Notes: generated by a model not told the origin, from the letters alone. A DNA stretch of 14,868 nt from a virus (IMGVR_UViG_2563366990_000002:1-14868), one strand, 5' to 3'; counted from the stretch's first letter, positions 1 to 14,868 are shown. Program-made: numbers and translations.

Positions 1-12
1 GAAATGTAAGGC

Positions 13-318
13 TTATGGGTCATTTCTGCGTTCCTTCTGCTTCAGGTAGCGGTCTGCCAGACGGCAAAAGCATTCTTCAATAAAGGCGCTGCCCATAATG
101 CCCAGCGCGCACGCCAGACCGACCACAACCAGTTCCGGCATGTCCGGAAATTTAAACAGCGGAATGGCGGCAACCGGTGCCACGGCAGAGCCCATAATCA
201 TTCGCCCGATAAGCAGACGGGCTGTGATGCGATCGCGGCTCACCATGAGACGCCCCAGCCCGATGGCAGCACCGATGATAATCAGTTTTGCCAGGAGTGA
301 AGTCTGACCGTCCGGCAT
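13..318 (-). CDS. small phage membrane protein, possibly holin-like (function tentative)
   Basis: 101-aa ORF with about three hydrophobic helix-like segments (LLAKLIIIGAAIGLGRLMV, IMGSAVAPVAAIPLF, LVVVGLACALGIMGSAFI); ATG at 318 lies 4 nt after the stop of the upstream tube-like gene, with a GGGGTGA Shine-Dalgarno-like motif. Product inferred from size and hydrophobicity only. Confidence 0.45.
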   Translation of the reverse strand: MPDGQTSLLAKLIIIGAAIGLGRLMVSRDRITARLLIGRMIMGSAVAPVAAIPLFKFPDMPELVVVGLACALGIMGSAFIEECFCRLADRYLKQKERRNDP

Positions 319-322
319 GGCA

Positions 323-784
323 TCACCCCTTCAGATCGCGGGTGTCACGGGCTGACAGGTAGGGCACGCCGTCAATGCTGATAAAGTCCGGGCTTGTGAC
401 CATGAACTTGATTTTTTTCGTGGTCTTTCCGGCTTCACCTGCGCTGATGTTCACCACGTCCGACAACATGGGGACGCAGCCGAATACCTCGATTTTTTCC
501 TCCTCGCTGCCGTTGTTGGCATAAAAGAGAAAATCCTTTTCAGGAATGGCACGCCACGACCCCGCAGAGCGGGCCACAGCACCAAACTTTTTAAAGTTCT
601 GCGCGTCGACTTCCACCTCCACATCGGCAGAAACAGAACCACGGGTGTAGCCGTTTGGCACGCCGCGCGTCTGTGCCACGGCGCTGTTGTCGGTGATGGT
701 GACGGTGGCGCTTTCCACGTGGATCATGATCCCGTCGTAGTTGATATCAAACGCGCCGCCGCTGATACGTTCATTTCCGGCCAT
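323..784 (-). CDS. putative phage tail tube-like structural protein
   Basis: 153 aa from ATG at 784 (MAGNERISGG...), preceded by GGAG; start lies 1 nt after the stop of the upstream sheath-like gene. Size and position directly after the sheath-like gene suggest a tube protein; I chose the 784 start over the longer 814 start because 814 overlaps the sheath-like gene. Confidence 0.5.
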   Translation of the reverse strand: MAGNERISGGAFDINYDGIMIHVESATVTITDNSAVAQTRGVPNGYTRGSVSADVEVEVDAQNFKKFGAVARSAGSWRAIPEKDFLFYANNGSEEEKIEVFGCVPMLSDVVNISAGEAGKTTKKIKFMVTSPDFISIDGVPYLSARDTRDLKG

Positions 785-785
785 G

Positions 786-1931
786 TCAGATCTCCAGTGC
801 TGTGTCGAGTTCAATACTTACGCCAATGGCTTTTGCGCTCTCGTAGGGGCGTACCACAATGTAAATCTGCACGTGTGTACTGCTGGTCCAGACGATGGTG
901 ATATCCCCGTCCTGTGGCGGTTTAACCTCGCCGGGGAACGGTACGCCGTTAATCTCCGTGGCGAGCGCCATTTCACGCAGCGTGCGGCTGAAATATGTCT
1001 GGCTGGCGGCAATGCTGCCCGGTGTGCTGTTGAGTGCGCGATCCGCAAGGCGGGCAATGGCGCGCAGACGTACACGGCGGGAGACCTTATCCACCACGCG
1101 CACGTTTTCGATGACCTGGTAATCGCCCCCCTCCACATCAAGGGTGCGTCCGTCTGACCAGTAGAGCCCGTCGAAATCGTGATACCACATGGGCACGCTG
1201 AAGCGTTTGCCTTCCAGCGAGCGCAGCGTGGCCAGCTCAAGGGGCTGTTTCTTGCCGTCCTGCGGGATCTCATCGTTACCCATCGCCACCAGGGCACCGG
1301 TTGCCACACGTGCCGGACTGTCCGCAACGGTGACGGAAGGATTACAGAGACGGCCCGCCAGTACGCCGGGCTCATTTCCCCATAAGCGGGGAACCACCAT
1401 CACGCCAGGTGCTGCCACGCCGTCCTGTATGGCACTGATGCGGGTGACGTATGCCGCCCATGCCTCATCCTTGCCCGGTCCGGCCACGCACAGCATGAAC
1501 CAGACAAAGCGGCCATAAGCGGACTGAAGCAGGGCGCGGGTTTCGGTGGCGCGGTTAACGGCATCTTTGGCCGTGATGTCAATGGCAATCACCACGCCCT
1601 CGGCAGAGGCGATGGTCTGCGCTTTTTTCACCGCGTCCACCCATGCGGCGTTAGCGTCGCCACCCTCCGGTGCCGGGGGTTTGGGTTCAGACAGAACGTG
1701 AACATAGGCAAACCAGTTCTGGCCACCGTTGGCGATTGCGGCGCTAAGCGTGGATTTAAGCAGGCTTTCATCCGGTCCCAGCACGTCGTCCAGGTCGGTC
1801 TCAGGGGAGACGGAAAGGGTGTTACCTGTGTTCTTTTTGCCATAGCCCACAAAAAGCAGCGTGCGCTCCACTTCACGGGTGGCACCGTTGAAACGGTTCT
1901 GATGGCTTACGGTTACATTCGGCCAGCTCAC
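786..1931 (-). CDS. putative phage tail sheath-like structural protein
   Basis: 381-aa ORF starting with GTG at 1931, preceded by AAGGAG at 7-nt spacing; tightly packed after the virion morphogenesis gene. Sheath assignment is from size, position and general resemblance to contractile-tail structural proteins, not from a verified motif. Confidence 0.5.
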   Translation of the reverse strand: MSWPNVTVSHQNRFNGATREVERTLLFVGYGKKNTGNTLSVSPETDLDDVLGPDESLLKSTLSAAIANGGQNWFAYVHVLSEPKPPAPEGGDANAAWVDAVKKAQTIASAEGVVIAIDITAKDAVNRATETRALLQSAYGRFVWFMLCVAGPGKDEAWAAYVTRISAIQDGVAAPGVMVVPRLWGNEPGVLAGRLCNPSVTVADSPARVATGALVAMGNDEIPQDGKKQPLELATLRSLEGKRFSVPMWYHDFDGLYWSDGRTLDVEGGDYQVIENVRVVDKVSRRVRLRAIARLADRALNSTPGSIAASQTYFSRTLREMALATEINGVPFPGEVKPPQDGDITIVWTSSTHVQIYIVVRPYESAKAIGVSIELDTALEI

Positions 1932-1942
1932 GGTGTGACTCC

Positions 1943-2707
1943 TTATCTGATATCCTGTGCGTCAACGTCCAGGCCGTAGCCCATTGCGTTCATCTGGCGT
2001 GCCAGGATGTGTGAAAATTCTTCGTTTGTTACCCCCAGAAAGACGCGCGACGGAAGGGTAATGGTCCATGTCCTTGGGCTGTTACGTTGTCGTATTCCCG
2101 GACCATCACTGCTGTGAAGGTCGCGAAAATTTTCCCAGTCGTCGCGCTCAAATCTTGCCAGCAGCCAGCCTGCCTGTCGGTTAGATACCCTTCTCCGTAT
2201 CATTGACAGGGTGGCTTTTCGCCAGCGCTTGCCGCTTTTCAGCTCAAGCCCCCATGCTCTCAGCGCCTGTGCCTGCTTCAGGGAACACGGTACGGAACGC
2301 CCCGGTTTTTTGTGCCGGAAGCTGTCGCCGTGATAGCGGATGGTGGCGCCGTTGTGATGTGCCCACGCGACGTTACTCGCCGACGCTGTCGGGCCGTATC
2401 TGACTGCGCGGAAATACACCTTCACCGCGTCCTGTCCCGGTATCTCCCGCACTGCCATAAGGCGCGGGAGTTTTTTAAGCATCTTTCCGGTGTTCTTGCC
2501 TGCCTTCTTTTTTTTATTTTTCCGTGGTTCCCACGGCGTGCCGTCTGGTGCGCACTGGTTGCGCTGATGGCGTCTGGCTGCGGCGATAATGCCGTGCCGG
2601 GCAATACGCCATAACAGGCGATGGCGTTTTTTCGGGGGCAGATCCAGCGACTGAAGCATCGCCTGCGCTTCTGCCAGCTGCTGCGGGTTCAGCTGGCCGC
2701 TTATCAT
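1943..2707 (-). CDS. phage virion morphogenesis / tail completion protein (P2 gpS-like family), longer than P2 gpS
   Basis: 254-aa ORF whose ATG overlaps the stop of the upstream gene (ATGA at 2704-2707). The N-terminal region with a PDGTPWEPRK-type segment and basic patch resembles the virion morphogenesis family as I recall it. Contains a Lys-rich stretch encoded by an A8 run. Confidence 0.6.
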   Translation of the reverse strand: MISGQLNPQQLAEAQAMLQSLDLPPKKRHRLLWRIARHGIIAAARRHQRNQCAPDGTPWEPRKNKKKKAGKNTGKMLKKLPRLMAVREIPGQDAVKVYFRAVRYGPTASASNVAWAHHNGATIRYHGDSFRHKKPGRSVPCSLKQAQALRAWGLELKSGKRWRKATLSMIRRRVSNRQAGWLLARFERDDWENFRDLHSSDGPGIRQRNSPRTWTITLPSRVFLGVTNEEFSHILARQMNAMGYGLDVDAQDIR

Positions 2708-3177
2708 TCGCGGCTCCTGCTGACAAACAGCTCCATGGTTTCCGCCGTCCAGATTTCAGGGTTAACCAGTGTCCAGCGTTTCCCCCTGTACGGAACGGGG
2801 CCGTCTTCCTGCACCCGGATGATCAGCGGGTCAGCCAGTCCCACCGTGATATCGAGAAGGCACGAGTCCTCATCGTTAAACTGCGGGTCGACGTTCACAT
2901 CCTCCGGGCGGAATTCCTCCCTCAGTGGGTCCGCGTGCTCTTCCAGCCAGGCCATGACCAGCGCGTAAACCAGCCCCGGTGAGTATTTACGGAACGGGAA
3001 GTTATCCCATGCAATCACGCCGGTGTACGTCATCACGCCCATGCGGATCTGGTCGTTACCCAGCGCCTTCTGACTGCGGATAAGCTGCGCGTCTTCCTGA
3101 CTGCTCATGAAGAACTGCATGGCGTCAGGCGGCAGATTTTCGGTAATGAAGGCGGTCAGGCTTTCCAGCTGGTTCAT
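2704..3177 (-). CDS. phage tail completion / head-tail joining protein (P2 gpR-like, tentative)
   Basis: 157-aa ORF; its ATG overlaps the stop of gpL (ATGA at 3174-3177) and its stop overlaps the start of the next gene. Position directly after gpL and before the gpS-like gene, plus size, suggest a gpR-like completion protein. Confidence 0.5.
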   Translation of the reverse strand: MNQLESLTAFITENLPPDAMQFFMSSQEDAQLIRSQKALGNDQIRMGVMTYTGVIAWDNFPFRKYSPGLVYALVMAWLEEHADPLREEFRPEDVNVDPQFNDEDSCLLDITVGLADPLIIRVQEDGPVPYRGKRWTLVNPEIWTAETMELFVSRSRE

Positions 3178-3647
3178 ATGATGTGCACTCCTGCGCGTCT
3201 GTGCCCCAGCATGTTACGCATGACCAGCGAGGCTTCAGCCAGTAAGGTGGCGCGTGTGTCCTCGCTTTCCTGCCCCGGATAGGTTTCACGGCGACCAATG
3301 GTGGCGAACTCGCCCATAAGATCGGCCTTGGCACGGGCATAAACGGCCTTTTTGTACTGTGCGACCAGCTGGGTTTCATCGCCCATCCTGGCCCCCGGTA
3401 CGTCTGCGGCGCGTTCATGCCCCTGCGCCTTCCAGTGCGCCACAACCGGCGCCAGCGTGGTGTTCACCTCGGCCACTGCGGCAAGCAGCGCCATGGCCGC
3501 CGTGTCGTCGGGTAAATCAGCCGGAAGCGTGCGTGACCCCTGAAGCTCAGCCAGATCAAGGTCCGGCCAGAACGGCTCGCCGTTTGTCACCGTCTGCGGT
3601 GTGGATTTCAGCGGTTTACCGCTGACGCTGAAGCTCGGTTCGCTCAT
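3174..3647 (-). CDS. L: phage head completion / stabilization protein (P2 gpL family)
   Basis: 157 aa from ATG at 3647 (MSEPSFSVSGKPL...), preceded by GAGG at about 6-nt spacing. Size is close to P2 gpL (about 169 aa) and it sits immediately after the small terminase gene as in the P2 O-N-M-L order. Confidence 0.8.
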   Translation of the reverse strand: MSEPSFSVSGKPLKSTPQTVTNGEPFWPDLDLAELQGSRTLPADLPDDTAAMALLAAVAEVNTTLAPVVAHWKAQGHERAADVPGARMGDETQLVAQYKKAVYARAKADLMGEFATIGRRETYPGQESEDTRATLLAEASLVMRNMLGHRRAGVHII

Positions 3648-3754
3648 GACGTGCCTCATATGAATAAAAAGGCGGGCTGTCCGGGATTCCACGGCCATAC
3701 AGTTTCCGTCACTGATGCCTCCTCCCGCGCCCGCCCGGCCCTGCGGGTAGTCGT

Positions 3755-4453
3755 TTACGCTACATTAAGGGCGCTGATGCGTGCCCTGATGCGCGCCCTG
3801 ATACTTTTTACGCCAGCGGTACGGCTCAGTGCTGCCGCCTGTGCCAGGTATGCGTCTGCCTTTTCCAGTACGGCAGTATCATTAATCGCGGTGGCTCTCG
3901 GTTTGCCCGCCTCGTCGCGCAGAAGATACAGCCCGGCAAATCTGAACCACTTCGCGCGGATTTCCTCATGCAGCCGCCACGTGGTGGTGACGTTCCTGAA
4001 GGTGCGCGAAAAATACGGCTCTATGCTGTGTCCGGCCTCGCTGTTGTCGGTGGCCCACTGCAGCACCGTGTCGGCCACGAAGGCGGGCAGGGTGCTACGG
4101 AAGTTGTCCGGCGTGGCCTGGCCTTCACTGATGGCAATGTCTGCCCAGTCAAGGGCGCGACTCAGGTCGCCCGTGTCGAACAGCCAGATGATGCAGTACA
4201 CCAGTACCGGGCAGGCGTGGCGCTTTCCGTCAGCGATATAGCGCTCCGCGACGGGCAGCCAGCGCGGCAGGAGAATGTCGCGCTTGAACGCCAGCCGCTC
4301 TTCACGGACCGGAAGACTGCGCAGCCGTGCCACATCGCGATCAAGCTCCGCGCGTAACAGGTGGAAGCTGACCGGGGAGGCCGTCAGCGCCTCCCGGCGT
4401 TCGAGTGCCTCCTGTGTGCGGATTTTCGCCCGGTGTCGCTGGCAGGGTGTCAT
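3755..4453 (-). CDS. M: terminase small (endonuclease) subunit, P2 gpM family
   Basis: 232-aa ORF directly after the major capsid gene; size and position match P2 gpM (about 247 aa). C-terminus carries an in-frame IRARIRAR repeat. Confidence 0.85.
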   Translation of the reverse strand: MTPCQRHRAKIRTQEALERREALTASPVSFHLLRAELDRDVARLRSLPVREERLAFKRDILLPRWLPVAERYIADGKRHACPVLVYCIIWLFDTGDLSRALDWADIAISEGQATPDNFRSTLPAFVADTVLQWATDNSEAGHSIEPYFSRTFRNVTTTWRLHEEIRAKWFRFAGLYLLRDEAGKPRATAINDTAVLEKADAYLAQAAALSRTAGVKSIRARIRARISALNVA

Positions 4454-4470
4454 TGCGCCGCCCTCTGTGC

Positions 4471-5490
4471 TTATGCGCCGACGTCTTCGGCTTCTTCTGC
4501 GCCCTTGATGGTCAGCTTGTCGTAGGCCGCGTAAATTTCGTCGTGCTCCACGGCGTAACCTTCCATGCGCAGATAGTTATTTTCAAAACGCTTGCGATCG
4601 TCGTTCCACTCCGCACGGCGCTGACGGGTGCCGCGCTGCGTGTAGATGTGAAGGTTTGCCAGCGTGGTGACAATCAGGCGCCCTTCCGGCATGAACGGCG
4701 GGGTGTATGCTGTCAGCCCGGCGATCTGGCGACCGATAAGCTGCGCGGCCACTTTTTCCGTGGGGGCGTCGATGGCGTTAAGCAGCGTCACCTTGTCCTG
4801 TGCCACAAGATCGGGCGCAACCAGTACCACCAGATCCGGATGACCGCGATACGACTCATCAATGAGGGTATGCACGAGGTCTGCCACGGCTGCATCCAGC
4901 CCGATAAAGTCGCCACCCTTGCCCAGCGTCGGGCCAGCCTCCACGATCTGTTTTGCGCTGCGGCCTTTGACGATGGCATGCCAGCCGGTGTTGACGTCCT
5001 CGCCGTTTTTGTTGGTTACCGGGTCGGTATCTTCGGCTACGCTGGTACCGTTAAAGGCGATGCGCAGGATATCCAGCGCAATCTGTCTGTTAACGAAATT
5101 CTGAATGCGGTTAAAGAACTCGTTTTCACTTCCTGCGTTCGCCCAGGTGACCAGTGTGGTGTACAGGAGGTGGGCGCCGGAATCGGTTTCAGCCAGCTTG
5201 TATTCATTCCCGGTAACACCCAGCGGAAGGGTGAAGCGGGCATTTTTTTTACGTCCGGTATGGAGGCCCGGAACGCCGGTGGTAACCACCTGGCCTGTCA
5301 CCTGTTCAACATCCAGCACGTTCGGCAGTTTTGATAAAAACTCGTCGGAGTGCATGATGGCGTCACGCAGCGCGGTCTCCTTCGGGTCAGACAGCGCAAA
5401 ATAGCGTGTGACGTCGTCAACTCCGTTTGCCGCACCCAGCCCGGCAGCGTACTTACGAAGCAGTGATTCGGTTTTCTGGTTCAGTTGCAT
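4471..5490 (-). CDS. N: major capsid protein, P2 gpN family
   Basis: 339-aa ORF between the scaffold and small terminase genes; size close to P2 gpN (about 357 aa) and conserved gene order. Uninterrupted long ORF with normal amino-acid composition. Confidence 0.9.
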   Translation of the reverse strand: MQLNQKTESLLRKYAAGLGAANGVDDVTRYFALSDPKETALRDAIMHSDEFLSKLPNVLDVEQVTGQVVTTGVPGLHTGRKKNARFTLPLGVTGNEYKLAETDSGAHLLYTTLVTWANAGSENEFFNRIQNFVNRQIALDILRIAFNGTSVAEDTDPVTNKNGEDVNTGWHAIVKGRSAKQIVEAGPTLGKGGDFIGLDAAVADLVHTLIDESYRGHPDLVVLVAPDLVAQDKVTLLNAIDAPTEKVAAQLIGRQIAGLTAYTPPFMPEGRLIVTTLANLHIYTQRGTRQRRAEWNDDRKRFENNYLRMEGYAVEHDEIYAAYDKLTIKGAEEAEDVGA

Positions 5491-5501
5491 GTTGCGTATC
5501 C

Positions 5502-6560
5502 TTAAACAAAGTCAAACGGTTTTTCGCTTTCTGCCGGTGTGCCGGCCGGGCGTGGCGTGATGCCGGTGGCTGACAGCTTCGTGGTCAGGTCGTTAAGTTT
5601 TTCGGCAATGGCTTTGATTTCTTCTTTGTCGGTGTCGTCCCGGCGACGGGCGGCAAAGCGGCGGTAACGTTCGCCTTTTTCCGGTGTGATGGTGCTGAAG
5701 GCTTTGATGGCGTCTTCCAGCTTCGCTTTTGCAGCGGTAAAGGCTTCGGCCTTAACCTCGTCTTCCGGGGCGGCTTTCACTTCTTCTGCCAGCTCTGCCA
5801 CCTCTGCGGCGGCGTCGGCGATTTCGGCGGCGATTTCCGCGACTTCGGCTTTTGCTTCTTCCGGCGTGTCTGCTGTGCCCTCGCCAGCGGCAGCGGCGCT
5901 GCCGCCTTCCACCAGGGTGATCAGCTTTTCAAGCAGTGCTTTAATTTCGTCCATTTTTGCGTCCTCGCCTGTATCAGGCTTACTGGTATCGGTGTTGTCG
6001 GTGTTGTCGGTCTGTCCTGCGCTGAACAGGCGTTTCAGGAATGATTCAGGTTTACTGGGGGCATGGGTGGTGTCCGGTGACAGGCTGCCCAGCGTGAACG
6101 TCTGGCAGTTCGCCCGCTGTGCTGTGTATTCCTCGTTGTTCAGGGTGAAGCGTATTTTTTCCGTCCCCAGACTGGCGGGGATATCCGTCACCGCCACGCC
6201 CAGGAGATAGTCGCGTCCGCTCCGGGCGAAGTTCTCCACTATCTCGGCGGATGTGAACAGCTTCTGCCCCAGTCTGTTGGCTTCAATCAGGTACTGGTTA
6301 GGGACCAGCCGCGCGTAGAGGCGGGTTTTACCGTCCTCGCCGGTTTCCGCTTTCAGTGAGTCCACTTCACCCAGATTACTGGTGTACTGGCGGTGTCCGA
6401 TTTCTTCCTCATGCCAGGGCCACAGCATCGCCGTGTAGGTGTTGCGGGAATAGGTTTCAGCGGCATCAGTCAGCCACTGCGGATCAATTTCGCGGCCGTC
6501 AACGGTCGGTCCTGATGTGGCGATACATATCCAGTCGGTCATCAACGTTGGCTGCGGCAT
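5502..6560 (-). CDS. O: capsid scaffolding protein, P2 gpO family, with extended Ala/Glu-rich region
   Basis: 352 aa from ATG at 6560 (MPQPTLMTDW...), preceded by GAGG. First gene of the minus-strand late operon, followed by the capsid gene. Long Ala/Glu/Lys-rich coiled-coil-like region typical of scaffold proteins. The ORF track's longer 408-aa version starts inside the regulatory region and is less likely. Confidence 0.85.
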   Translation of the reverse strand: MPQPTLMTDWICIATSGPTVDGREIDPQWLTDAAETYSRNTYTAMLWPWHEEEIGHRQYTSNLGEVDSLKAETGEDGKTRLYARLVPNQYLIEANRLGQKLFTSAEIVENFARSGRDYLLGVAVTDIPASLGTEKIRFTLNNEEYTAQRANCQTFTLGSLSPDTTHAPSKPESFLKRLFSAGQTDNTDNTDTSKPDTGEDAKMDEIKALLEKLITLVEGGSAAAAGEGTADTPEEAKAEVAEIAAEIADAAAEVAELAEEVKAAPEDEVKAEAFTAAKAKLEDAIKAFSTITPEKGERYRRFAARRRDDTDKEEIKAIAEKLNDLTTKLSATGITPRPAGTPAESEKPFDFV

Positions 6561-6726
6561 CGTGGCCTCTTTTACGTGAAAATCTGAAGAACTCCGGTGA
6601 GTGTCGGGATTTTTACAGCGGGGGGCTACTGGCTGAATTCGGCTGTCTTCGGATAACGTGGGATAGCCGAACACAGCCGAAATTTTCTGCCTGAATGCGG
6701 GCCGGATGCGCCGCCATAATGGGCGC
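6561..6726. promoter_or_regulatory. divergent late-promoter region between the gpO and gpP operons
   Basis: 166-bp non-coding gap between divergently transcribed capsid and terminase/portal operons. Contains a 13-bp imperfect inverted repeat (CGGCTGTCTTCGG at 6640-6652, CCGAACACAGCCG at 6667-6679) and a TGT-N10-ACA element at 6602-6617. In P2 the equivalent region carries Ogr-activated late promoters. Confidence 0.55.
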
Positions 6727-8529
6727 ATGGCTAAATATTCTGACGAAATTAAAGAGGCGGCCCGCTCGCTTTATCTGAAGCGGTGGCATCCCCGAGATAT
6801 TGCGGCGGAGCTCGGTATTCCGCCGCGCACGGTTTACCACTGGTGTGATGTGGGGCAGTGGGCCGCCCTGCTGCCCGCTGAATCCGTTGAGGAGGTGATC
6901 GCCCGGCGTATTGATGTGCTGACCGGGCGCGAGGGTAAGACGGAGTGCGAACTTGCCGAACTGCGCGAGCTTATCGCACAGCACGTGAAGATTATCGCCC
7001 AGAAAAACAAACACGCTGAAAGGATGGCGGAAATTGCCGCCACGCGTCCGGCAGTGTGCGACGACGGTGTGGCGGCGACCAGCGGCGGGGGGGAAGGGAA
7101 AAAGCGGCGCTACCGGAAAAACAACGTTTCCGGGCTGACTGCTGAAATGCTGGATGCATGGGCGCGTAAAAATCTTTATGCCTACCAGCTGCACTGCCGC
7201 GAGAACCGGCACCGTGAGTGGCGTTTCATCCTCAAGAGTCGCCAGATAGGCATGACCTGGTATTTTGCATGGGAGGCGTTCGAAGATGCGGTGGTGACTG
7301 GTGATAACCAGATATTCTTTTCTGCGTCACGGGTTCAGGCGGAAATCTTCCGCGAATATATTATTAATTTCGCCCTGCAGTTCGGGATCACGCTCACGGG
7401 TAAGCATATCCGTTTAAGCAATGGCGCAATGCTGCGTTTCCTGTCCACCAATGCCAGTACCGCCCAGGGATTTAACGGCCACCTTTACGGCGATGAGGTG
7501 TTCTGGATCCCAAAATTCACGCGACTGCATGAAGTGGCCTCGGCAATGGCAACCCACGACAAATACCGCACGACGTACTTTTCGACACCCAGCGCCAAAA
7601 CCCACCAGGCTTATCTGGTCTGGAACGGTGACGACTGGCGCGGGGATGATCCGGCGCGTCGTGCTGTTGAGTTTCCGAAAGAAAGCGCGATGCGTGTGGG
7701 CTGTGAATGCCCTGACGGGATCTGGCGCTACATTATCCGGCTGGAAGAGGCGGTGGCGGGTGGCCTGTCTGCACGGGTTGATATTGAACGTATCAGGAAC
7801 CGCTACAACCCGACCACCTATGCGATGCTGTACGGCTGCGAGTTTGTTGACAGCAAGGATGCGGTATTTAAGTTCTCCGAACTGGTCAGGTGTGAGGTGG
7901 AGATGGAGACGTGGGGTGACTACGATCCCACGGCGGCACGTCCGTTCGGCAATCGTGAGGTGTGGGCGGGCTTTGACCCGTCAAGGTCCGGGGATAATTC
8001 CACGTTTGTAATTGTGGCTCCGCCTGTCCATGAGGGCGAGCGGTTCCGTGTGCTCGCCGTCTGGCAGTGGCAGGGATTTAACTTCACCTGGCAGGCCGAT
8101 CAGATCCGCGAACTGATGCAGCGCTTTAACATTACCTATATCGGCATAGATATCACCGGTATCGGGAAAGGGGTGTTTGATATCGTCAGTCGCTTTGCGC
8201 CACGTGAGGCTAACGCCATTCTTTACAGCGTGGAGAGCAAAAACCGCCTGGTGATGAAAATGATAGACGTGGTGGCCCATAAGCGTATCGAGTGGGCGAA
8301 AGACGCCATTGATGAGGCCAGCCGTGAACGCACGGAGATCCCCGCGTCGTTCATGTCCATACGCCGCACCACCACAAAAAGCGGTAACGCGCTGACGTTC
8401 GTGGCGGAACGGTCGGATGTTACGGGGCATGCGGATGTGTTTTTTGCCATTTCGCACGCCGTGATTAATGAGCCTGTAGATTATGACTATGAACGCCCGT
8501 CCACATGGGCCTTCGGGAAAGCCGCATGA
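6727..8529 (+). CDS. P: terminase large (ATPase) subunit, P2 gpP family
   Basis: 600 aa from ATG at 6727 (MAKYSDEIK...); size matches P2 gpP (about 590 aa). Divergent from gpO and followed by the portal gene with a 4-nt ATGA overlap. An alternative start at 6706 would add 7 aa. Confidence 0.9.
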   Translation: MAKYSDEIKEAARSLYLKRWHPRDIAAELGIPPRTVYHWCDVGQWAALLPAESVEEVIARRIDVLTGREGKTECELAELRELIAQHVKIIAQKNKHAERMAEIAATRPAVCDDGVAATSGGGEGKKRRYRKNNVSGLTAEMLDAWARKNLYAYQLHCRENRHREWRFILKSRQIGMTWYFAWEAFEDAVVTGDNQIFFSASRVQAEIFREYIINFALQFGITLTGKHIRLSNGAMLRFLSTNASTAQGFNGHLYGDEVFWIPKFTRLHEVASAMATHDKYRTTYFSTPSAKTHQAYLVWNGDDWRGDDPARRAVEFPKESAMRVGCECPDGIWRYIIRLEEAVAGGLSARVDIERIRNRYNPTTYAMLYGCEFVDSKDAVFKFSELVRCEVEMETWGDYDPTAARPFGNREVWAGFDPSRSGDNSTFVIVAPPVHEGERFRVLAVWQWQGFNFTWQADQIRELMQRFNITYIGIDITGIGKGVFDIVSRFAPREANAILYSVESKNRLVMKMIDVVAHKRIEWAKDAIDEASRERTEIPASFMSIRRTTTKSGNALTFVAERSDVTGHADVFFAISHAVINEPVDYDYERPSTWAFGKAA

Positions 8530-9578
8530 GCAAGAAACGCAGAAACAAAACGTCACGCGTGACGAAAAAAGCATTCACGCCCGCACGTGGCAGCACAATC
8601 ACGTTTGGTCAGCCGGAACCGGTGCTGACCACCGGCACGGACTACCATAACATCTGGTATGACAACGAACACAACCACTGGCAGCTGCCGATTAACCGCC
8701 TGGCACTGGCGCAGCTCCCGAACCTTAACGCCCAGCACGGTGGGGTGCTGTATGCCCGCCGTAACATGGTGGCGGGGGGCTATACCGGTGGTGGTCTCAC
8801 AACGGACCAGATGGAACAGGCGGTATTTGACTACCTGTTGTTCGGCGATCTCGCCCTGCTCAAGGTGCGTAACGTATTCGGCGACGTCGTGGCACTTGAG
8901 CCGCTTCCGTCGCTGTATCTCCGGCGCCGCAAAACCGGTGAGTTCGTGGTGCTTCAGGAAGGTCCCGCGCTGGTCTATACGCCGGAAGATATTATCTTTC
9001 TGCGGATGTATGATCCGCGTCAGCAAATTTACGGGCTGCCGGATTATATCGGTGGCATCCACTCGGCGCTGCTGAACAGCGAGGCCAGCCTTTTTCGTCG
9101 CCGTTACTACAACAACGGGGCGCATATGGGCTTTTTGCTGTATACGAACGACCCTGGGATCACCACGGAGATGGAGGATGAGATCCGCGAGAAGGTGGCG
9201 GAGTCTAAGGGGCTGGGAAATTTCCGCAATCTGTACATCAACATCCCCAAAGGTTCGCCGGATGGGGTGAAAATTATTCCGATTGGTGAGGTGAGCGCCA
9301 AGGATGAATTTTCAAACATCAAGGGGATCAGCGCCCAGGATGTGTTTACGGCACACCGCTTTCCTGCCGGTCTTGCGGGGATTATCCCCACGAACGGGGC
9401 CACCATCCCTAACCCGGAAACGACGCGTGAAACGTACCGCAAGGATGAGGTGATACCGCTTCAGCGTAAAATCATGAACGCCGTGAACAGCGATCCCGAT
9501 ATACCGGAACACCTTTATCTTTGTTTTGATGTGGATGCCGGGCATGTGGCGGAAGAAAAAGCGGTGCCGGTCGGGTAA
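8526..9578 (+). CDS. Q: portal protein, P2 gpQ family
   Basis: 350 aa from ATG at 8526 (MSKKRRNK...), overlapping the gpP stop. Size matches P2 gpQ (about 344 aa) and P-then-Q co-transcription matches P2. Confidence 0.9.
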   Translation: MSKKRRNKTSRVTKKAFTPARGSTITFGQPEPVLTTGTDYHNIWYDNEHNHWQLPINRLALAQLPNLNAQHGGVLYARRNMVAGGYTGGGLTTDQMEQAVFDYLLFGDLALLKVRNVFGDVVALEPLPSLYLRRRKTGEFVVLQEGPALVYTPEDIIFLRMYDPRQQIYGLPDYIGGIHSALLNSEASLFRRRYYNNGAHMGFLLYTNDPGITTEMEDEIREKVAESKGLGNFRNLYINIPKGSPDGVKIIPIGEVSAKDEFSNIKGISAQDVFTAHRFPAGLAGIIPTNGATIPNPETTRETYRKDEVIPLQRKIMNAVNSDPDIPEHLYLCFDVDAGHVAEEKAVPVG

Positions 9579-9615
9579 AATGTCCTCCCCGGAATACGTG
9601 TTATCGGGAGGTAAG

Positions 9616-9879
9616 ATGCGGATTTTTAAAGCCCGGTGTCCTGACTGTGGCGCACCTGCTGTCATCCGGAAGACAGACTGGAAAACCCCTGAACTTGCGG
9701 ATCTGTACTGTGCATGCAGTGATGTCGAATGCGGGCATACCTTCGTCTGTACGATGACCTTTTCCCATACCCTCAGCCCCGGTGCCCGCTCCGGTCGCAA
9801 TATGGTGAAGTTTCTTGTTGATGCCATGCGCCCGGAAGATCGCCGGTATGCGCTTGAACTACTGTCGCGGCGTTCCTGA
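9616..9879 (+). CDS. Ogr/Delta-family C4 zinc-finger transcriptional activator homolog
   Basis: 87 aa from ATG at 9616, preceded by strong GGGAGG at 4-nt spacing. Motif CPDC-x20-C-x-C-x4-C-x2-TF aligns with P2 Ogr (CPLC ... YHQCQNVNCSATF). Has a roughly 40-aa C-terminal extension relative to the zinc-finger core. Confidence 0.8.
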   Translation: MRIFKARCPDCGAPAVIRKTDWKTPELADLYCACSDVECGHTFVCTMTFSHTLSPGARSGRNMVKFLVDAMRPEDRRYALELLSRRS

Positions 9880-9895
9880 CGCGCTTCGCTTGTCT

Positions 9896-9940
9896 GCTGC
9901 TTCGCCGGGGCAAAAAGAATTTTTACCCCGGCGAAGCAGC
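9896..9940. repeat. perfect 15-bp-stem inverted repeat (GCTGCTTCGCCGGGG ... CCCCGGCGAAGCAGC) with A5/T5 loop
   Basis: Read directly from the sequence. Located 17 bp after the Ogr-like gene stop. No U-tract follows on either strand, so it is not a classic intrinsic terminator; could be an RNA stability or termination element or a protein-binding or packaging-related site. Confidence 0.7.
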
Positions 9941-9975
9941 CCTGATAAAGGGGGGGGGTGGTGTAAATTCGGACG

Positions 9976-10007
9976 TTATAAAATTAAAAAAGCGCCGTAA
10001 CGGCGCT
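9976..10007 (-). terminator. rho-independent terminator for the minus-strand 75-aa gene
   Basis: Hairpin AGCGCCG-TAA-CGGCGCT at 9991-10007 followed on the minus strand by TTTTTAATTTT (9976-9990), 30 nt downstream of the stop at 10038. Confidence 0.65.
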
Positions 10008-10037
10008 CGGGTAGAGTATTTATTCATGCAAAAATAG

Positions 10038-10265
10038 TTAATCCGGCTCCCCTCGTATTATTGTTTCTGTATGAATATCGGGAATCTGTTTTGTACCGGA
10101 TAGATATTTTACAGCAAGACTCATTAAGTCATTGTAATTATAATCCCTTCCAGCTACAGCTCCACTCAGGATGTAGGCGTCTTCAATATTGGCTGCGATG
10201 CAGGACAAGATATCAGCTAAAAGGGTTGTATCGTAGTTCGTATAGCGTTTGATTAGATGAGACAT
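10038..10265 (-). CDS. hypothetical 75-aa protein, AT-rich accessory (moron-like) gene
   Basis: ATG at 10265 preceded by GGAGG at 4-nt spacing; own terminator downstream and AT-rich upstream promoter-like region. Local GC is far below the rest of the window. No recognisable family. The ORF track's longer 90-aa version lacks a ribosome-binding site. Confidence 0.6.
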   Translation of the reverse strand: MSHLIKRYTNYDTTLLADILSCIAANIEDAYILSGAVAGRDYNYNDLMSLAVKYLSGTKQIPDIHTETIIRGEPD

Positions 10266-10445
10266 AAAACCTCCGGGTTGCTTATTAATATTGCTGGCGA
10301 AATCAGTCATTGTGTTAGCTATGTAATATTAACAGAAGTGTAAAGTGTTTTTATTCCGGGGTGGTAATGTTGCATATATTTTCTTAGTGTGTGTCGGGTG
10401 AATGAATTGCGTTGCGGTGAAAAAATCGGGCGCGTCAGTGCGGCC

Positions 10446-10601
10446 TTACTGCTGACGGCGTTCCCGGAGTTCGGTCAGTGCTGCAAGTAAATTCTCCCAC
10501 CACGTTTCTTCCACGACCGGGTTTTGTCGTGAAAGCAGCTGCTGTGCCGACTCAATCATTTTCGTAAGCTCTCTGTCGCTGATCCTCCTGGTGCTGTTCA
10601 T
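10446..10601 (-). CDS. hypothetical 51-aa protein
   Basis: ATG at 10601 (MNSTRRISDRELTK...) preceded by AAGGAG at 6-nt spacing; 48 bp downstream of the preceding ORF in the same orientation; weak hairpin plus T6 after the stop. Charged and helical in character. Confidence 0.5.
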   Translation of the reverse strand: MNSTRRISDRELTKMIESAQQLLSRQNPVVEETWWENLLAALTELRERRQQ

Positions 10602-10649
10602 GGTGCGCTCCTTTAGTTGGCTGTTTCTGGTTATGTTCATGGTCTTTGT

Positions 10650-11054
10650 TTACCTGCGTGATTGTCTGCCAGCGGCTGAATGCACATAGCGGGCAATTGC
10701 CGCTTTGCGGTTAATCGATGCCAGTGTTCTGGTGAGTTCTGCGTTGTGTTTGTGTGCCTGCTCTTCGTGGTACTGCCGCATGATTTTTCCGGCAGGCGTG
10801 AGCGGCTCCGGCTCTCCGGGCGGACGGCGCGGACGAACGGCGACAAGCCAGCTGCGGTTGGTGCTGTCCGGTCGTCCGTTGAGTATGTCGGTGATGATGG
10901 TCGTGGTGGTGCGATCGGGACTGACGACCGTGATTTCCAGCTCATCGCCCGGTTGTGGCCCCGTGGCAATGTTGTTCAGGGTCAGTAAGGGCGTGCGCTG
11001 GCGCATCAGTTCGTCAAAACGCTGTCGCTGCATGGCGCAATAAAAGCGGGTCAT
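10650..11054 (-). CDS. hypothetical 134-aa protein, translationally coupled to the replication gene
   Basis: ATG at 11054 overlaps the gpA stop (ATGA at 11051-11054). Pro/Arg-rich sequence with no recognised family. The region is GC-rich with several overlapping alternative-frame ORFs, so coding status is moderately uncertain. Confidence 0.5.
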   Translation of the reverse strand: MTRFYCAMQRQRFDELMRQRTPLLTLNNIATGPQPGDELEITVVSPDRTTTTIITDILNGRPDSTNRSWLVAVRPRRPPGEPEPLTPAGKIMRQYHEEQAHKHNAELTRTLASINRKAAIARYVHSAAGRQSRR

Positions 11055-13570
11055 TGTGGCGCCTCCGTATTCGGTGCGGGGGTGATATCAATGCGGCGGG
11101 TGCTGTCATTCCAGTACGAGGTGCGCCCGTCAGCCAGGCGCACGCGGGCACCGTGACGGACGGAAACGACGGCGCTTTCATGCAGCTGCACGCCCAGCGC
11201 ATCAAGCTCGCGGGTGATTTGTGCGGTGATGTGTGGCTCAGCGGTCAGAGCGACACTCACGCGAACGCCGCCAGCGGGCGCACTGATGCCGCCGTTTTTC
11301 ACGGTTTCCGTGTCAGGTGGCGGGCTTTTCAGCTGCCTGGTGAGTTGTTTTCGCTCTGTGGGGGTCAGTGACCTTAACCATTCACCCAAATCACCTTCCG
11401 GCAGGGTAAGTCGCTGCTCCCTGCGTCCGTCCGGCTGCCTTTCTGGCGGGTCGTTTATGGTCAGATTCTGGTCAGGGGGACAGTTATTGCCACGAGTCCA
11501 AGGTGCGGCAAAGCCGCACTCAACGTCAAAACCCTCGTCCGTGCGGTCTTCGTTTTCCGGCTTACGTCTGACCAGTTTCCAGGTGTCCGGGTGGGTGCAT
11601 ATGGTGTAGCGCTCCCCGAGTGACGGGGCGCGGACGCCGTAAATACGTTGCGGGAATTCGCCGTAGTCGTTGGCCTCTTCGGCAGTTTCGTATGCGGTGC
11701 GGACCAGGTACGTGTTGCGGGGAATGAGCACACCACCCTGGCGGGTGATATAGGTGGCAAAACATCCCACGTCGGCGGCGGCCAGTATGGCGTCAATGTC
11801 GTCATGGTCCAGACGCTGCGGGGCAGCCGGGTTACGGGCCATCTGCCCGGCAAGACGGCGGAGTTCGCGCCATACCTGGCGGGGCGGGATACCGAAGAAC
11901 TGGAACTGGTGGATGCGGTGAAGGCCTGCCCAGCCGATGGCGTTCTCCACGGTTTCGGCCATGGTTTTGCCTGATTCCTTATCGACGTAAGGTTTGCCGG
12001 TTTTCGGGTCATTCCCCATGAAGGTGCTGGCGTCCAGGTTCTTACCGATATAGGTCGCGATATAGCTTGTCGGTGTGCCTTTTGTCGGGTCGATTTTTTC
12101 GCATTTAAAACGCGGGGAGATATCATCACCCAGCTCTGCGCGGTCCTCCCTGATGGCGGCGTTGCGCATGATTTCAGTGATACGGGCTTCGTTTTCCTGG
12201 CTGGTGAATACCAGCATGTGCCAGTGCGGTGTACCGTCGTGGTGGGGCTCCACTGTGCGCACGCCGTACCAGCCCAGCCCGGCCTTGTCGATGGCCCTGC
12301 GGACGGCGGCGAAAAAGCGGTAAACCAGATAATCACTGGCATCGCGTACCGTTGCTCCGCAGTATTTCGGGTTCAGGCTGCCGTCATCGTTCACGCTGTG
12401 AAAACGGGAAGGGGCTGTGACGGTGACGAAAAACGCCACGTCGCCGCGTGCTTCGGCGACCTGCTCCATCCCCCGGACGCAGGCCATCATCTCGTTACGG
12501 CGGTTACGCGGATTAGAGAGACCTGCCCAGTAGATATCCTCAAGGCTGAACCGTTCTCCCTCTTCGTTCTCGATGTCCCAGGCCTTCAGAAAATCGCGGG
12601 TGCGCTGGCGTTTTTCGCGCCAGTCCAGTAACGCTTCATGGCTGATATATACCGACGTCTTACGTGACACCAGGCCTGCGGCGCGTAACAGCTCTTCACG
12701 CCAGATGTCCCGGAGGTGTCTTAACTGACTGTTCCACCATGTCGCACAGGAAAGGCGCATGACCGCACCCGGCACCCGTTCCGGGTCGGGGTCGGTGCGG
12801 CGGTCGGGCCTGATTTCCAGCGACGGCCAGCAGGGTGGCGTGATACCCAGTTTTAACGCCATGTGTGCCAGTGGCTGGTAGGTCAGTAACCAGGTGAGCA
12901 GGTCATCGTCACCCCTGCCGGTCTTTTCGATGACTTCATCACATGCGCGCTCCAGTGCGGTGGAAAACGCGGTGGCGGTCAGGGTGGCAAGGCGCTGGAT
13001 TTCGTCACGGCTCAGCTGTGGCAGCATAAGCAGTTCATCCAGCCGTTCGCGCGCGGCGGTGGCCTTAAAGGCCGGGGTGGCAAAGCGTTCATTCACACGG
13101 GCGATACGTTTCAGGCGGGCACGCAGCCCGTGACGAACGAAGTTATCCGCCGCATATGCGCTGTTATTCTTAAGCCCTTCCCGGCGTGCGCTCTCCTGTT
13201 TGCGGCTCAGGCGCGCCAGGTCACGGATGAGCGGACCGGCAAGAAACGGCGGCAGGGCGCGCAGCTCTGCCATGGCTTCAGATACCAGCGTTGGCGGATT
13301 TTCGCGTTTGTGTCGCGTCAGTTTTTCCAGTCTGATCCGACGCTCTTCGTCGTGATGAAGATGCGAATTAATTCGCTTCCCTTCGTCTGTGGTTGTCAGG
13401 AAGGCGACGGTTTCTTCATCCAGTCTGGCGTCAGTGCGAATATCCTCGTTGATGTAGCTCTGAATGGCCTGGCGTAATGCGGTTGGCTGCGCTCTGCCGA
13501 ACGTTTCAGGATCGATAACCGGTAGCGGGGCGTTCCACGGGTACGCCAGCTGTGCATTGTGGTCACTCAT
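11051..13570 (-). CDS. A: replication initiation endonuclease, P2 gpA family (rolling-circle HUH nickase)
   Basis: 839 aa from ATG at 13570 (MSDHNAQLAYPW...). Contains the HUH-type motif PHWHMLVF characteristic of P2 A / phiX174 A-type rolling-circle initiators; size comparable to P2 gpA (about 761 aa). The track's GTG start at 13579 is less likely than the ATG that overlaps the upstream stop. Confidence 0.9.
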   Translation of the reverse strand: MSDHNAQLAYPWNAPLPVIDPETFGRAQPTALRQAIQSYINEDIRTDARLDEETVAFLTTTDEGKRINSHLHHDEERRIRLEKLTRHKRENPPTLVSEAMAELRALPPFLAGPLIRDLARLSRKQESARREGLKNNSAYAADNFVRHGLRARLKRIARVNERFATPAFKATAARERLDELLMLPQLSRDEIQRLATLTATAFSTALERACDEVIEKTGRGDDDLLTWLLTYQPLAHMALKLGITPPCWPSLEIRPDRRTDPDPERVPGAVMRLSCATWWNSQLRHLRDIWREELLRAAGLVSRKTSVYISHEALLDWREKRQRTRDFLKAWDIENEEGERFSLEDIYWAGLSNPRNRRNEMMACVRGMEQVAEARGDVAFFVTVTAPSRFHSVNDDGSLNPKYCGATVRDASDYLVYRFFAAVRRAIDKAGLGWYGVRTVEPHHDGTPHWHMLVFTSQENEARITEIMRNAAIREDRAELGDDISPRFKCEKIDPTKGTPTSYIATYIGKNLDASTFMGNDPKTGKPYVDKESGKTMAETVENAIGWAGLHRIHQFQFFGIPPRQVWRELRRLAGQMARNPAAPQRLDHDDIDAILAAADVGCFATYITRQGGVLIPRNTYLVRTAYETAEEANDYGEFPQRIYGVRAPSLGERYTICTHPDTWKLVRRKPENEDRTDEGFDVECGFAAPWTRGNNCPPDQNLTINDPPERQPDGRREQRLTLPEGDLGEWLRSLTPTERKQLTRQLKSPPPDTETVKNGGISAPAGGVRVSVALTAEPHITAQITRELDALGVQLHESAVVSVRHGARVRLADGRTSYWNDSTRRIDITPAPNTEAPQ

Positions 13571-13983
13571 GCGTCGCACTCCCCGGCAGTCGCCGCCTGA
13601 AACGCCGCGCGGTACAGCACGAGAAGGCGCTGGTATTCACCGATAAAGTCTTCTGCGGTGTATATGCCTTTCACGGCCACGCTGTGCGTTGTCATTTCCA
13701 GAACAAGCGTCATCTCTGACGACGACCAGCTGATGGCGGTGCTGTCGGTTCCGTTGATGTGAAATAAACCAAAACCATCACCATCGCCTTTCACGTCCAC
13801 GCGGTAACGGCCGTCAACGGTGAAGGAGAAATCCCCGTATGTGGTGACGCGTCTGGCGGCCTGTTTACAGGCGCGGCGGTAATAGTCGTGCCAGTCGTTC
13901 AGGCGGGAAGCCAGCCGGGGATCCACTGCCCACATCCAGTTAAAAAAATCCTGAATATCTGAAAGTCCCTTAACGCTCTTCAT
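13567..13983 (-). CDS. hypothetical 138-aa early-operon protein
   Basis: ATG at 13983 preceded by GGAGG at 5-nt spacing; stop overlaps the gpA start (ATGA at 13567-13570). Position corresponds to the small ORFs upstream of A in P2-like early operons. Confidence 0.6.
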   Translation of the reverse strand: MKSVKGLSDIQDFFNWMWAVDPRLASRLNDWHDYYRRACKQAARRVTTYGDFSFTVDGRYRVDVKGDGDGFGLFHINGTDSTAISWSSSEMTLVLEMTTHSVAVKGIYTAEDFIGEYQRLLVLYRAAFQAATAGECDA

Positions 13984-14051
13984 GAGAACCTCCGGTAACA
14001 GACGTGCGGAAGCCTCCCGCGCACGGGTGCGGGATGGCTTCAGGATGTTGT

Positions 14052-14333
14052 TTAGTGGTGGTGTTGCTGCTGGTTGATAAGGTCCTGCAGTTCTGCCAGG
14101 TCTTCGGCCAGATAGCTGAAGACTGCCGCGTAATACCCGGCAGCGATACCATCGTTAAGTCGATGTAATGCGTTTGACTGCATGATGAAGGTGACAGATG
14201 CAGCCCGATGGAGTCTGCGGTTAATTTCAGTGCGGATGTGAAGACGCTCAGCGCGGGCGCGCTGTTGGTGACTGGAGTTCAGACGTGTGCTCTTCCGATC
14301 TGCGCGGGCGCGCTGTTGTTTGCGGTTTGCCAT
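14052..14333 (-). CDS. hypothetical small early-operon protein, reading frame contaminated by a 51-bp adapter-derived insertion
   Basis: ATG at 14333 preceded by GAGG. The encoded segment ADRKSTRLNSSHQQRAR (and SEEHTSELQSPTARPR in the overlapping 14248..14514 minus-strand track ORF) comes from the Illumina adapter plus duplicated flank; the native protein is probably about 76 aa. Confidence 0.5.
   Translation of the reverse strand: MANRKQQRARADRKSTRLNSSHQQRARAERLHIRTEINRRLHRAASVTFIMQSNALHRLNDGIAAGYYAAVFSYLAEDLAELQDLINQQQHHH
14268..14301 (+). other. Illumina TruSeq adapter sequence (GTGACTGGAGTTCAGACGTGTGCTCTTCCGATCT), assembly contamination
   Basis: Exact 34-nt match to the standard Illumina adapter as I recall it, flanked by a perfect 17-bp direct duplication GCGCGGGCGCGCTGTTG at 14251-14267 and 14302-14318. 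Confidence 0.9.
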
Positions 14334-14505
14334 GGTGTGGCCTCTTTGGTTGTGAATTTTGAAAACTCACCATCCAGAGGTGGAAAACTCGGGGTGGCGA
14401 GGCGTACAGGGTTTCCACAACCGGTAACCAAAGAACCCGGCCCGACCGAAGTCGGCCCCGTACGCCCCGCCATAATTCTGACGCGAAAAAGACGTGGCAA
14501 TACAG

Positions 14506-14531
14506 TACGCACAAAAAAACCGCTGGCGCGG
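14506..14531 (-). terminator. candidate intrinsic terminator on the minus strand
   Basis: On the minus strand, a short stem AACCGC-GCCA-GCGGTT followed by a T7 run (plus-strand A7 at 14513-14519), about 125 nt downstream of the truncated minus-strand ORF ending at 14654. Stem is short, so strength is uncertain. Confidence 0.4.
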
Positions 14532-14653
14532 TTGTGCGCTTTGGTTATCGGCGGGGTGGAAATCCCGGCACCCGTTTTATGAGGTGCGGGAAAACTGTAA
14601 CCCGACCAGGCGAACGCTGGCAAGCGGTTTTTTTGTGTGTGCATGATGATCAC

Positions 14654-14868
14654 TCAGCCCGGTAACAGTTCACAGAGCACTGCGTCAGTTGCGGTGCGGC
14701 GGTGGTAGAGATGAAACGCCGCATCGTCGTTAATGTGCATCTGTATCGTGCTGTTGATGTGTTCAGCGATCATGCAGAACGTCATGTTGTGTATGTCGCG
14801 TAGCTCCGTGACCAGCTCAACCAGATGATCGCTGTATCTGGCGCAATGGTGGTTCTCACCGCATTTTT
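14654..14868 (-). CDS. hypothetical protein, 5'-truncated by the window edge
   Basis: Open frame on the minus strand running from the window end to a TGA at 14654-14656 (...HINSTIQMHINDDAAFHLYHRRTATDAVLCELLPG). Same orientation as the early operon; identity unknown. Confidence 0.45.
   Translation of the reverse strand, partial: KCGENHHCARYSDHLVELVTELRDIHNMTFCMIAEHINSTIQMHINDDAAFHLYHRRTATDAVLCELLPG

Follow-up and report, generated by a model that had tools for sequence, protein, structure and literature searches.

The long inverted repeat downstream of the late genes in the prophage sequence studied here (IMGVR_UViG_2563366990_000002, positions 1 to 14,868; this whole 14,868-nt stretch is referred to as the window) is, to judge from its relatives, the local copy of a non-coding junction block of about 70 bp, composed of a conserved flank, TGACGCGCTTCGCTTGTCT, and a two-helix quasi-palindrome. 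Comparison with these relatives shows the perfect stem of the window's copy to be the product of a quasipalindrome template switch, the direction and mechanism of which we infer. Taken together, the observations are probably best explained by a block that marks the boundary of the late transcription unit and acts at transcript 3′ ends, one arm of which was perfected here by template switching, with an unstable G tract beside it and the cos site lying elsewhere.

The window is part of an HP1/Irrigatiovirus-like prophage of the P2 family and carries the genes for holin, tail tube and sheath, as well as L, M, N and O on the minus strand. The order around the repeat is M, N and O (minus strand), P, Q and ogr (plus strand), the hairpin, a convergent cargo gene, two small ORFs and gpA (Table 1). 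The ogr gene, annotated in sister E. coli prophages as encoding an Ogr/Delta-like zinc finger protein, completes the P-Q-ogr late transcription unit. From its stop codon it is 17 nt to the start of the hairpin, which was thus correctly placed just after the late operon in the first-pass annotation of this sequence. Among isolated phages, the Salmonella Irrigatioviruses SI7, SW3 and SW5 are nearest, with about 71% nucleotide identity. Sister prophages in 12 complete E. coli genomes are 97-99% identical to the window up to position 9930 and divergent beyond it; in sister prophages, the spacer between ogr and the cargo gene is 65 bp long and made up of the hairpin block. A further relative, L017, is 98.5% identical to the window and has a GGG insertion beside a G7 run in the terminase gene P (approximately 7077-7093) and lacks 9 nt in a repetitive segment of the scaffold gene O (window positions 5987-5995), both being in-frame length changes at simple repeats.

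The AT-rich cargo ORF converges with ogr, has a terminator of its own and sits in the gpA-gpQ interval, a hotspot known to hold cargo and defence genes in P2-like phages (PMC9122126, PMC13586616). A protein 99% identical to the cargo product (P0001) is listed on 64 contigs, and searches of Pfam, PADLOC and, by tblastn, the phage collection gave no match. Homologues with 64-68% identity were observed in the same hotspot of other E. coli and Enterobacter P2-like prophages, one of them adjoining a Phd/Fic pair. The cargo terminator is identical at 20 of 22 positions to the cargo-bordering terminator of P88-like prophages, a score reached by none of 500 shuffles.

Table 1 Features of the region around the junction block and alleles of the G-rich tract (positions in the window)
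Feature	Position	Strand	Remark
Terminase gene P	6706-8529	+	
Portal gene Q	8505-9578	+	
ogr/Delta-type zinc-finger late activator gene	9616-9879	+	Pfam Ogr_Delta, E 1.3e-15
Conserved left flank of the junction block, TGACGCGCTTCGCTTGTCT	9877-9895	.	opens with the ogr stop codon
Near-perfect palindrome	9896-9940	.	left arm 9896-9916, loop 9917-9919, right arm 9920-9940
Converted patch	9931-9936	.	ACTCAC -> GCGAAG relative to L001, L131-L134 and L126
Hypervariable simple-sequence tract A3 G9 TGGTGT	9947-9964	.	includes G9, 9950-9958
Canonical intrinsic terminator of the cargo gene	9978-10008 (stem 9990-10008)	- (T-run on minus strand)	terminator scan
AT-rich cargo ORF	10038-10265	-	75 aa from an internal Met; maximal ORF 90 aa, to 10310
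Replication gene A	11051-13579	-	
Tract allele A3 G5 (TGG)2 TGT			L127, L128, L140, L141, L142; commonest
Tract allele A3 G8 TGGTGT			L137
Tract allele A3 G9 TGGTGT			window only; nearest allele G8
Tract allele A3 G6 C G5 TGT			L017, with A>G in the next triplet
Tract allele A4 G8 TGT			L139, L144
Tract allele A5 G8 TGT			L138
Tract allele A5 G10 T			L143

Direct indexing and a repeat search agreed on two arms, GCTGCTTCGCCGGGG (9896-9910) and CCCCGGCGAAGCAGC (9926-9940), which are complementary over all 15 bp. All that was first described was therefore confirmed, the A5/T5 segment being itself paired: A5 (9912-9916) pairs with T5 (9920-9924) around a GAA loop. A single C·A mismatch (9911/9925) adjoins the 15-bp stem on the side of the loop, and the hairpin as a whole, 45 nt long, is palindromic at all but this position (20 of 21 pairs formed) and has a 3-nt loop. 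The G9 run begins nine bp past the stem, as had been stated, after the spacer CCTGATAAA (9941-9949). No longer perfect stem is present in the window, 20 shuffles of which gave 8-10 bp, and the hairpin is also the window's most stable 60-nt fold. Folding the transcript in silico, a check suggested along with the original description, yielded -48.8 kcal/mol (z -5.7) for the plus strand and -43.5 kcal/mol (z -7.3) for the minus strand, and none of 200 shuffles folded as stably as the hairpin RNA. The hairpin is far beyond chance. Since it is palindromic, the block folds in the transcripts of both strands. In its common imperfect forms, the minus-strand RNA is more stable than the plus-strand RNA (-31.9 versus -25.6 and -33.3 versus -20.6 kcal/mol) because the mismatches become G·U pairs. 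An Rfam search at a permissive threshold found no family reaching its gathering score (best hit 21.9 bits against a threshold of 40.3), and a motif scan detected neither a second copy of the element in the window nor any further one in phage SI7. The motif GCTTCGC occurs as two direct repeats, with a third, inverted copy in the perfect form. One isolate-genome contig (L023, IMGVR_UViG_2526164661_000005) ends within the hairpin loop, which suggests that the palindrome can break short-read assemblies.

Of 5,426 complete E. coli genomes, about 1,100 carry the block 3′ of a portal or ogr gene, the complete genomes containing some 1,250 copies in all; it is also present in at least 120 IMG/VR contigs and in Salmonella. 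When species-representative genomes were scanned with the conserved flank, two loci only were found, both of the P88 type. In P88-like (Xuanwuvirus) prophages, TGACGCGCTTCGCTTGTCT and the hairpin lie directly 3′ of the portal stop codon. The 19-nt left flank is identical there, after ogr in the window's lineage, after a different ogr in the L145-type lineage and beside other left neighbours. At least five left neighbours were distinguished (Q, two unrelated ogr genes, a divergent small gene and others), and the right neighbours are many. The divergent small gene was seen in one P88-like group (L012, L018 and L152), where it lies about 75-130 nt upstream of the block and separates it from the portal gene; cargo insertion seems to have occurred to the left of the block as well in this group.

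The common form of the block has outer pairs GCTG/CAGC, an internal mismatch of CTTCGC on the left against ACTC(T/A)C on the right, and an inner stem-loop, so that the stem normally carries an internal mismatch of 4-6 nt. The inner stem exhibits a compensatory change: P88-like copies have GGGGCATAAA/TTTATGCCCC, and most sister prophages have GGGGCAAAAA/TTTTTGCCCC. Loops of AAA, GAA, GGA and AA occur, and the outer GCTG/CAGC pairs are constant. Among 13 distinct variants, five pairs change on both sides, a covariation score matched by none of 500 shuffles and approached by no slid register of the same 13 variants. These values indicate that structure, beyond sequence, is conserved in the block. 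Some of the covariation, however, does not speak for a function, because template switching makes complementarity without selection. The right-arm variant ACTCACC occurs with three different inner-hairpin types, which points to crossovers inside the block. In the L145-type lineage, three members (L146, L148 and L149) have a 14-bp tandem duplication, ATTCCAACGCCATT, in the hairpin-to-cargo spacer, as was seen by comparison with L145, L147 and L150.

The origin of the perfect stem is apparent from the sister prophages, which read CCCCGACTCACCAGC at the position of the window's CCCCGGCGAAGCAGC. Only the change ACTCAC>GCGAAG separates the window from those that are 99% identical. It comprises four substitutions (9931, 9933, 9934 and 9936), and all four create Watson-Crick pairs with 9900-9905. 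The imperfect inverted repeat, CCCCGACTC(A/T)CCAGC, occupies the same site in the sister prophages and in most P88-like copies; the perfect form was found in all 14 near-identical prophages with the same cargo. The GGCGAAGCAGC patch was also found on P88-type backgrounds (L004, L012 and L020), and about 45 of the approximately 1,100 genomes, a minority of the P88-like ones, match the perfect form at ≥99%. The nearest neighbour of L004 differs from it at one position in 700 nt of flanks and has an imperfect arm. The nearest neighbour of L012, likewise with one difference in 700 nt, carries the one-step intermediate GGCTCTCC, in which the arm is still imperfect. The flanks of L004 and L012 themselves are very different. 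These comparisons indicate that the same conversion arose at least two more times, in P88-like prophages. The stretches of identity flanking the patch (5 and 4 nt) are presumably too short for ordinary recombination to have moved it between lineages. A different perfect palindrome of 21 bp, GCTGCCTTGTCGGGACATAAA-GGA-TTTATGTCCCGACAAGGCAGC, follows the same left flank in the lineage L145-L150, the cargo gene of which is a 68%-identical homologue of the window's cargo gene.

Changes that recur, lie close together and reproduce the opposite arm exactly are the hallmark of quasipalindrome template-switch mutation, whose mechanism has been established in E. coli (PMC7202029). In this process, the strand being synthesised during replication would switch to the other arm as template and copy it. 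A single templated event of this kind would erase the internal mismatch of the ancestral quasi-palindrome and change four bases within 6 nt. The case is analogous to the Ripley model and to the E. coli reporters of the Lovett laboratory (PMC7202029) in that an imperfect repeat is perfected by clustered arm-copying substitutions which recur at one site; the present observation is of a polymorphism that occurs naturally among prophages, not of events in a reporter. Fold-back priming was rejected as the origin of the palindrome, as the conversion lies within the arm (9931-9936) and has left its outermost CAGC as it originally was.

As for function, the first-pass annotation held that the hairpin does not fit an intrinsic terminator, and our results agree. 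The GC-rich stem-loop is located at the 3′ end of a transcription unit, but neither strand has an adjacent U-tract: past the stem, the plus strand continues with CCCTGATAAAGGG and the minus strand with AGACAAGCGAAG, with no T-run, and the terminator scan made no call. The same place is occupied in related phages by terminators, namely a canonical one directly 3′ of ogr in SI7, the annotated, putative Rho-independent terminator tQ 5 nt 3′ of Q in P2, and a canonical one after Q in the Enterobacter prophage L154. The block shares with these the GC-rich stem-loop and the position after the last P-Q(-ogr) gene and before the cargo/early region; it differs from them in the lack of a U-tract, in a far longer stem (21 positions), in being palindromic and two-part, and in its unrelated sequence. 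Stable stem-loops without U-tracts have been described in E. coli at the protected 3′ ends of Rho-terminated transcripts (PMC6061677). The block is like these in being energetically stable, in having no uridines 3′ of the stem and in standing at the end of a transcription unit. It differs in that the downstream region is C-rich in typical P88-like copies (C/G of 1.9 over 90 nt) and not in the window (0.5, G-rich); the other copies had values of 1.0-1.5. As a rut signature, downstream C/G is inconsistent across lineages.

A role in forming transcript 3′ ends, as a terminator or as an insulator is most likely in view of the position and structure of the block. In many P2-family prophages of E. 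coli, the block stands at the end of the late P-Q(-ogr) unit and separates this unit from the convergent early and cargo genes of the gpA-gpQ hotspot. In the transcripts of either strand, the stem-loop could define or protect 3′ ends, acting as a terminator that needs no U-tract or as a stabiliser of Rho-terminated transcripts, and it would insulate the two convergent units from each other. Three points do not fit this role: the inconsistent C-richness expected of a rut site, the better fold of the minus strand in the imperfect forms and the invariant 19-nt left flank. A role in RNA structure gives no account of why this flank is invariant across unrelated neighbours.

The mosaic surroundings of the block could also be read as those of a recombination joint. 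We consider it unlikely that the block is a portable crossover site at the DNA level that swaps cargo cassettes at the gpA-gpQ hotspot, with a hairpin or cruciform stalling replication or provoking breaks and so driving cargo swaps, arm perfection and mutagenesis of the adjacent tract. The variety of left and right neighbours, the crossovers within the block that the ACTCACC variant points to, and the end of inter-lineage homology within a few nt of the palindrome's right end are consistent with such a site; the AT-rich centre between GC arms would favour extrusion, and the mechanism of exchange at the hotspot is stated to be open (PMC13586616, PMC9122126). However, gene ends and terminators are where mosaic boundaries would be expected in any case, since selection removes gene-breaking recombinants. 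In most P88-like prophages, about 300 bp downstream of the block are conserved too, so the block is not always the border of the cargo, and no enzyme or break site is implicated. Decidedly unlikely, in our opinion, is a dedicated and portable joint at which extrusion of the hairpin during replication would lead to stalls or breaks and these to cassette swaps between co-resident prophages, to repeated perfection of the palindrome and to mutagenesis of the tract. A joint is compatible with an RNA role and does not exclude it.

We give little credence to a regulatory element of another kind, either an operator recognised by a dimeric DNA-binding protein or a small or antisense RNA from the minus strand. 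The invariant left flank and the direct and inverted copies of GCTTCGC could belong to an operator, and the G·U pairs that favour the minus-strand fold in the common imperfect forms would suit an RNA. On the other hand, no Rfam family reached its threshold and no promoter was predicted nearby. Moreover, the arm sequence was wholly replaced in the L145-type lineage with the structure kept, which argues for structure rather than for a sequence-specific operator.

Next to the junction block, and no part of it, lies the G-rich tract. Its G9 run is the longest homopolymer of the window, which consists of 30% G, so that a run of this length somewhere in 14.9 kb is not very improbable. The suggestion that G9 may vary between isolates was borne out by comparison of tract lengths: the 14 near-identical prophages carry seven alleles, 15-18 nt long (read after CCCTGAT; all the sources are short-read draft assemblies). 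The alleles are related by single steps, namely slippage by ±1 in the run of G or of A, run-lengthening T>G substitutions, and loss of a TGG unit. Between the window and L017, the sole relative aligned in full, there is no difference outside the tract over about 750 nt (9820-10571); the other relatives, compared over about 110 nt, are identical outside the tract save for one G>A in the left arm of L141. The tract is absent from the L145-type lineage and from the sister prophages, in which the cargo stop codon follows almost directly past the palindrome. Exact-pattern scans of viral, genome and metagenome collections with the cargo-side flank returned L017 or nothing.

The tract lies in no ORF and no predicted promoter; the sole promoter-like site in a scan of 9000-11000 is at 9273-9301. 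Two candidate roles were tried and dropped. Promoter spacing tuned by the G tract found no candidate in the scan, and manual inspection gave poor hexamers only. An origin as a remnant of cos-flanking GTGCAAA repeats was not upheld, only the terminator part of the spacer being significantly similar. Judging by its alleles and distribution, the G tract is a young, unstable simple repeat that does not belong to the hairpin element and has no detectable function. The G/TGG repeat would have come in the spacer brought by the cargo cassette, and it would since have changed by slippage and run-extending T>G substitutions or, in part, by sequencing mis-calls. With phase-variable homopolymeric tracts it shares the long G-run and the difference in length among close relatives. 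It differs from contingency loci in lying outside any ORF or recognisable promoter, between two terminator-like structures, and in varying also by substitutions and losses of TGG units.

G-rich sequence just past a strong inverted repeat is a context in which systematic GGT>GGG miscalls arise. The tract stands in this context, G9 occurs in the window alone (the nearest allele being the G8 of L137), the contig L023 breaks within the hairpin loop, and an Illumina adapter, exact in sequence and with its flank duplicated, is embedded in the window. That the features described here are as a whole a sequencing or assembly artefact is nevertheless quite doubtful. Thirteen further, independent assemblies show the same perfect palindrome, and the hairpin is therefore real; the tract alleles differ in total length and in the length of the A-run, which is atypical of substitution-type miscalls. 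Part of the tract variation may be artefactual, given the short-read drafts and the adapter in the window's assembly. Of the two possibilities originally raised for the run, variation between isolates and a sequencing hot spot, the former has been confirmed, and a hot spot may contribute to it in view of the untrimmed adapter. The adapter itself (34 nt, Illumina TruSeq, AGATCGGAAGAGCACACGTCTGAACTCCAGTCAC) lies at 14268-14301 on the minus strand, in the early region of the prophage, and its surroundings (14251-14318) show a 17-nt direct duplication, GCGCGGGCGCGCTGTTG. It is an assembly artefact from untrimmed reads and creates spurious ORFs, with peptides such as SEEHTSELQS.

The suggestion that this structured segment could be related to packaging was not supported by comparison. 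The hairpin or the G-rich tract, or both, would serve as a cos or terminase-binding site, which we regard as very improbable. The cos site of P2 is indeed found between Q and the cargo genes, and published work places the hotspot beside cos (PMC9122126). In the sister prophages, the hairpin block is the sole non-coding DNA between ogr and gpA, and the block is conserved in lineages with unrelated neighbours. Like the cos of P2 and 186, it is non-coding, near the portal gene and at the edge of the cargo hotspot, and it has a G/C-rich core with CCCCG. The imperfect right arm and its flank can even be aligned with the P2 cos core in the correct orientation at 21 of 29 positions, but the score of 18 is within the shuffle range (null 16.3 ± 2.3, maximum 28). 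The canonical P2 cos 19-mer is indeed absent, as first noted, with no match in the window at up to three mismatches. Looser scans (up to six mismatches) of the window, the Bongo prophage, SI7 and P88-like loci produced chance-level matches only. Very permissive blastn-short searches against the cos regions of P2 and P88 yielded noise except for the terminator match, and local alignments of P2 cos to the hairpin spacer, the P88-like region and the after-tail blocks described below were all within shuffle ranges. A search of the literature found no mapped cos site for P88 or phiSM. The block thus lacks the conserved 19-nt cohesive end of P2-type cos sites, and it also lacks their constancy among phages with the same terminase. 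Its arms differ at 4-5 positions among near-identical prophages and again in the L145-type lineage, unlike a terminase recognition site, and the G tract, with its seven alleles, is missing from the sister prophages.

In P88-like prophages, moreover, the hairpin comes directly after Q and a cos-like sequence is found separately, 300-380 bp further on. This region has a CCGTCA..GCGCGCAG flank, an CCGCCACGC core and GTGCAAA repeats, and it holds CCGTCACCTGCGCGCAG, to be compared with CCGTCAGCGCGCAG of P2. Similar features are found next to the canonical cos, TTCCCCCGCCTCGCC, of the Enterobacter prophage L154; this cos is also the starting point of the linear record LR595891. When L004 (approximately 4318-4480), L003 (3300-3407) and L154 (1740-1900) were compared, the P88-like sequences were seen to have no 19-mer between the GCGCGCAG flank and the GTGCAAA repeats, and their CCGCCACGC core sits about 60 nt further on. 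The P88-like cos core appears to be displaced or replaced relative to P2 and L154.

The gene order of the window's prophage is that of HP1 and PV94, in which the mapped ends adjoin int/attP, after the tail genes. The annotated cosL of HP1 is 250 nt from attP, and the right end follows the last tail gene; in PV94, the ends have been mapped and int is close to the left end (PMC3986222). PV94 has an ogr-like gene after Q, too. At the after-tail position, a conserved non-coding block was found in a sister prophage (L005, E. coli Bongo, approximately 43640-43980) and in SI7 (L006, approximately 20330-20640), with ACGTAA repeats, which the HP1 ends also have, TTTGCA/GTGCAAA repeats and a core AAACACCCCGCCAGG. 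By synteny with HP1 and PV94, this block, which lies outside the window and whose similarity to P2 cos is not significant, is a candidate for the expected cos region. The packaging reading of 9896-9958 is therefore not supported and is probably wrong.

For the annotation of HP1-like prophages of the P2 family, these results mean that cos should not be placed after the late unit, and that the exact length of the G-run described here should not be trusted. The imperfect repeat, the one-step intermediate and three different perfect forms constitute a clean natural series of recurrent quasipalindrome correction. The hairpin, the templated correction and the homopolymer are, as such, ordinary kinds of feature. 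Yet a single non-coding block of about 70 bp, with no match in Rfam, stands at the portal-side edge of a well-studied defence-gene hotspot in about one-fifth of complete E. coli genomes. Its mosaic neighbours mark it as a possible anchor for the exchange of cargo, and this is the sole aspect of wider interest. If the block did serve as a recombination joint, it would provide a mechanism for the cassette exchange which the hotspot literature lists as open.
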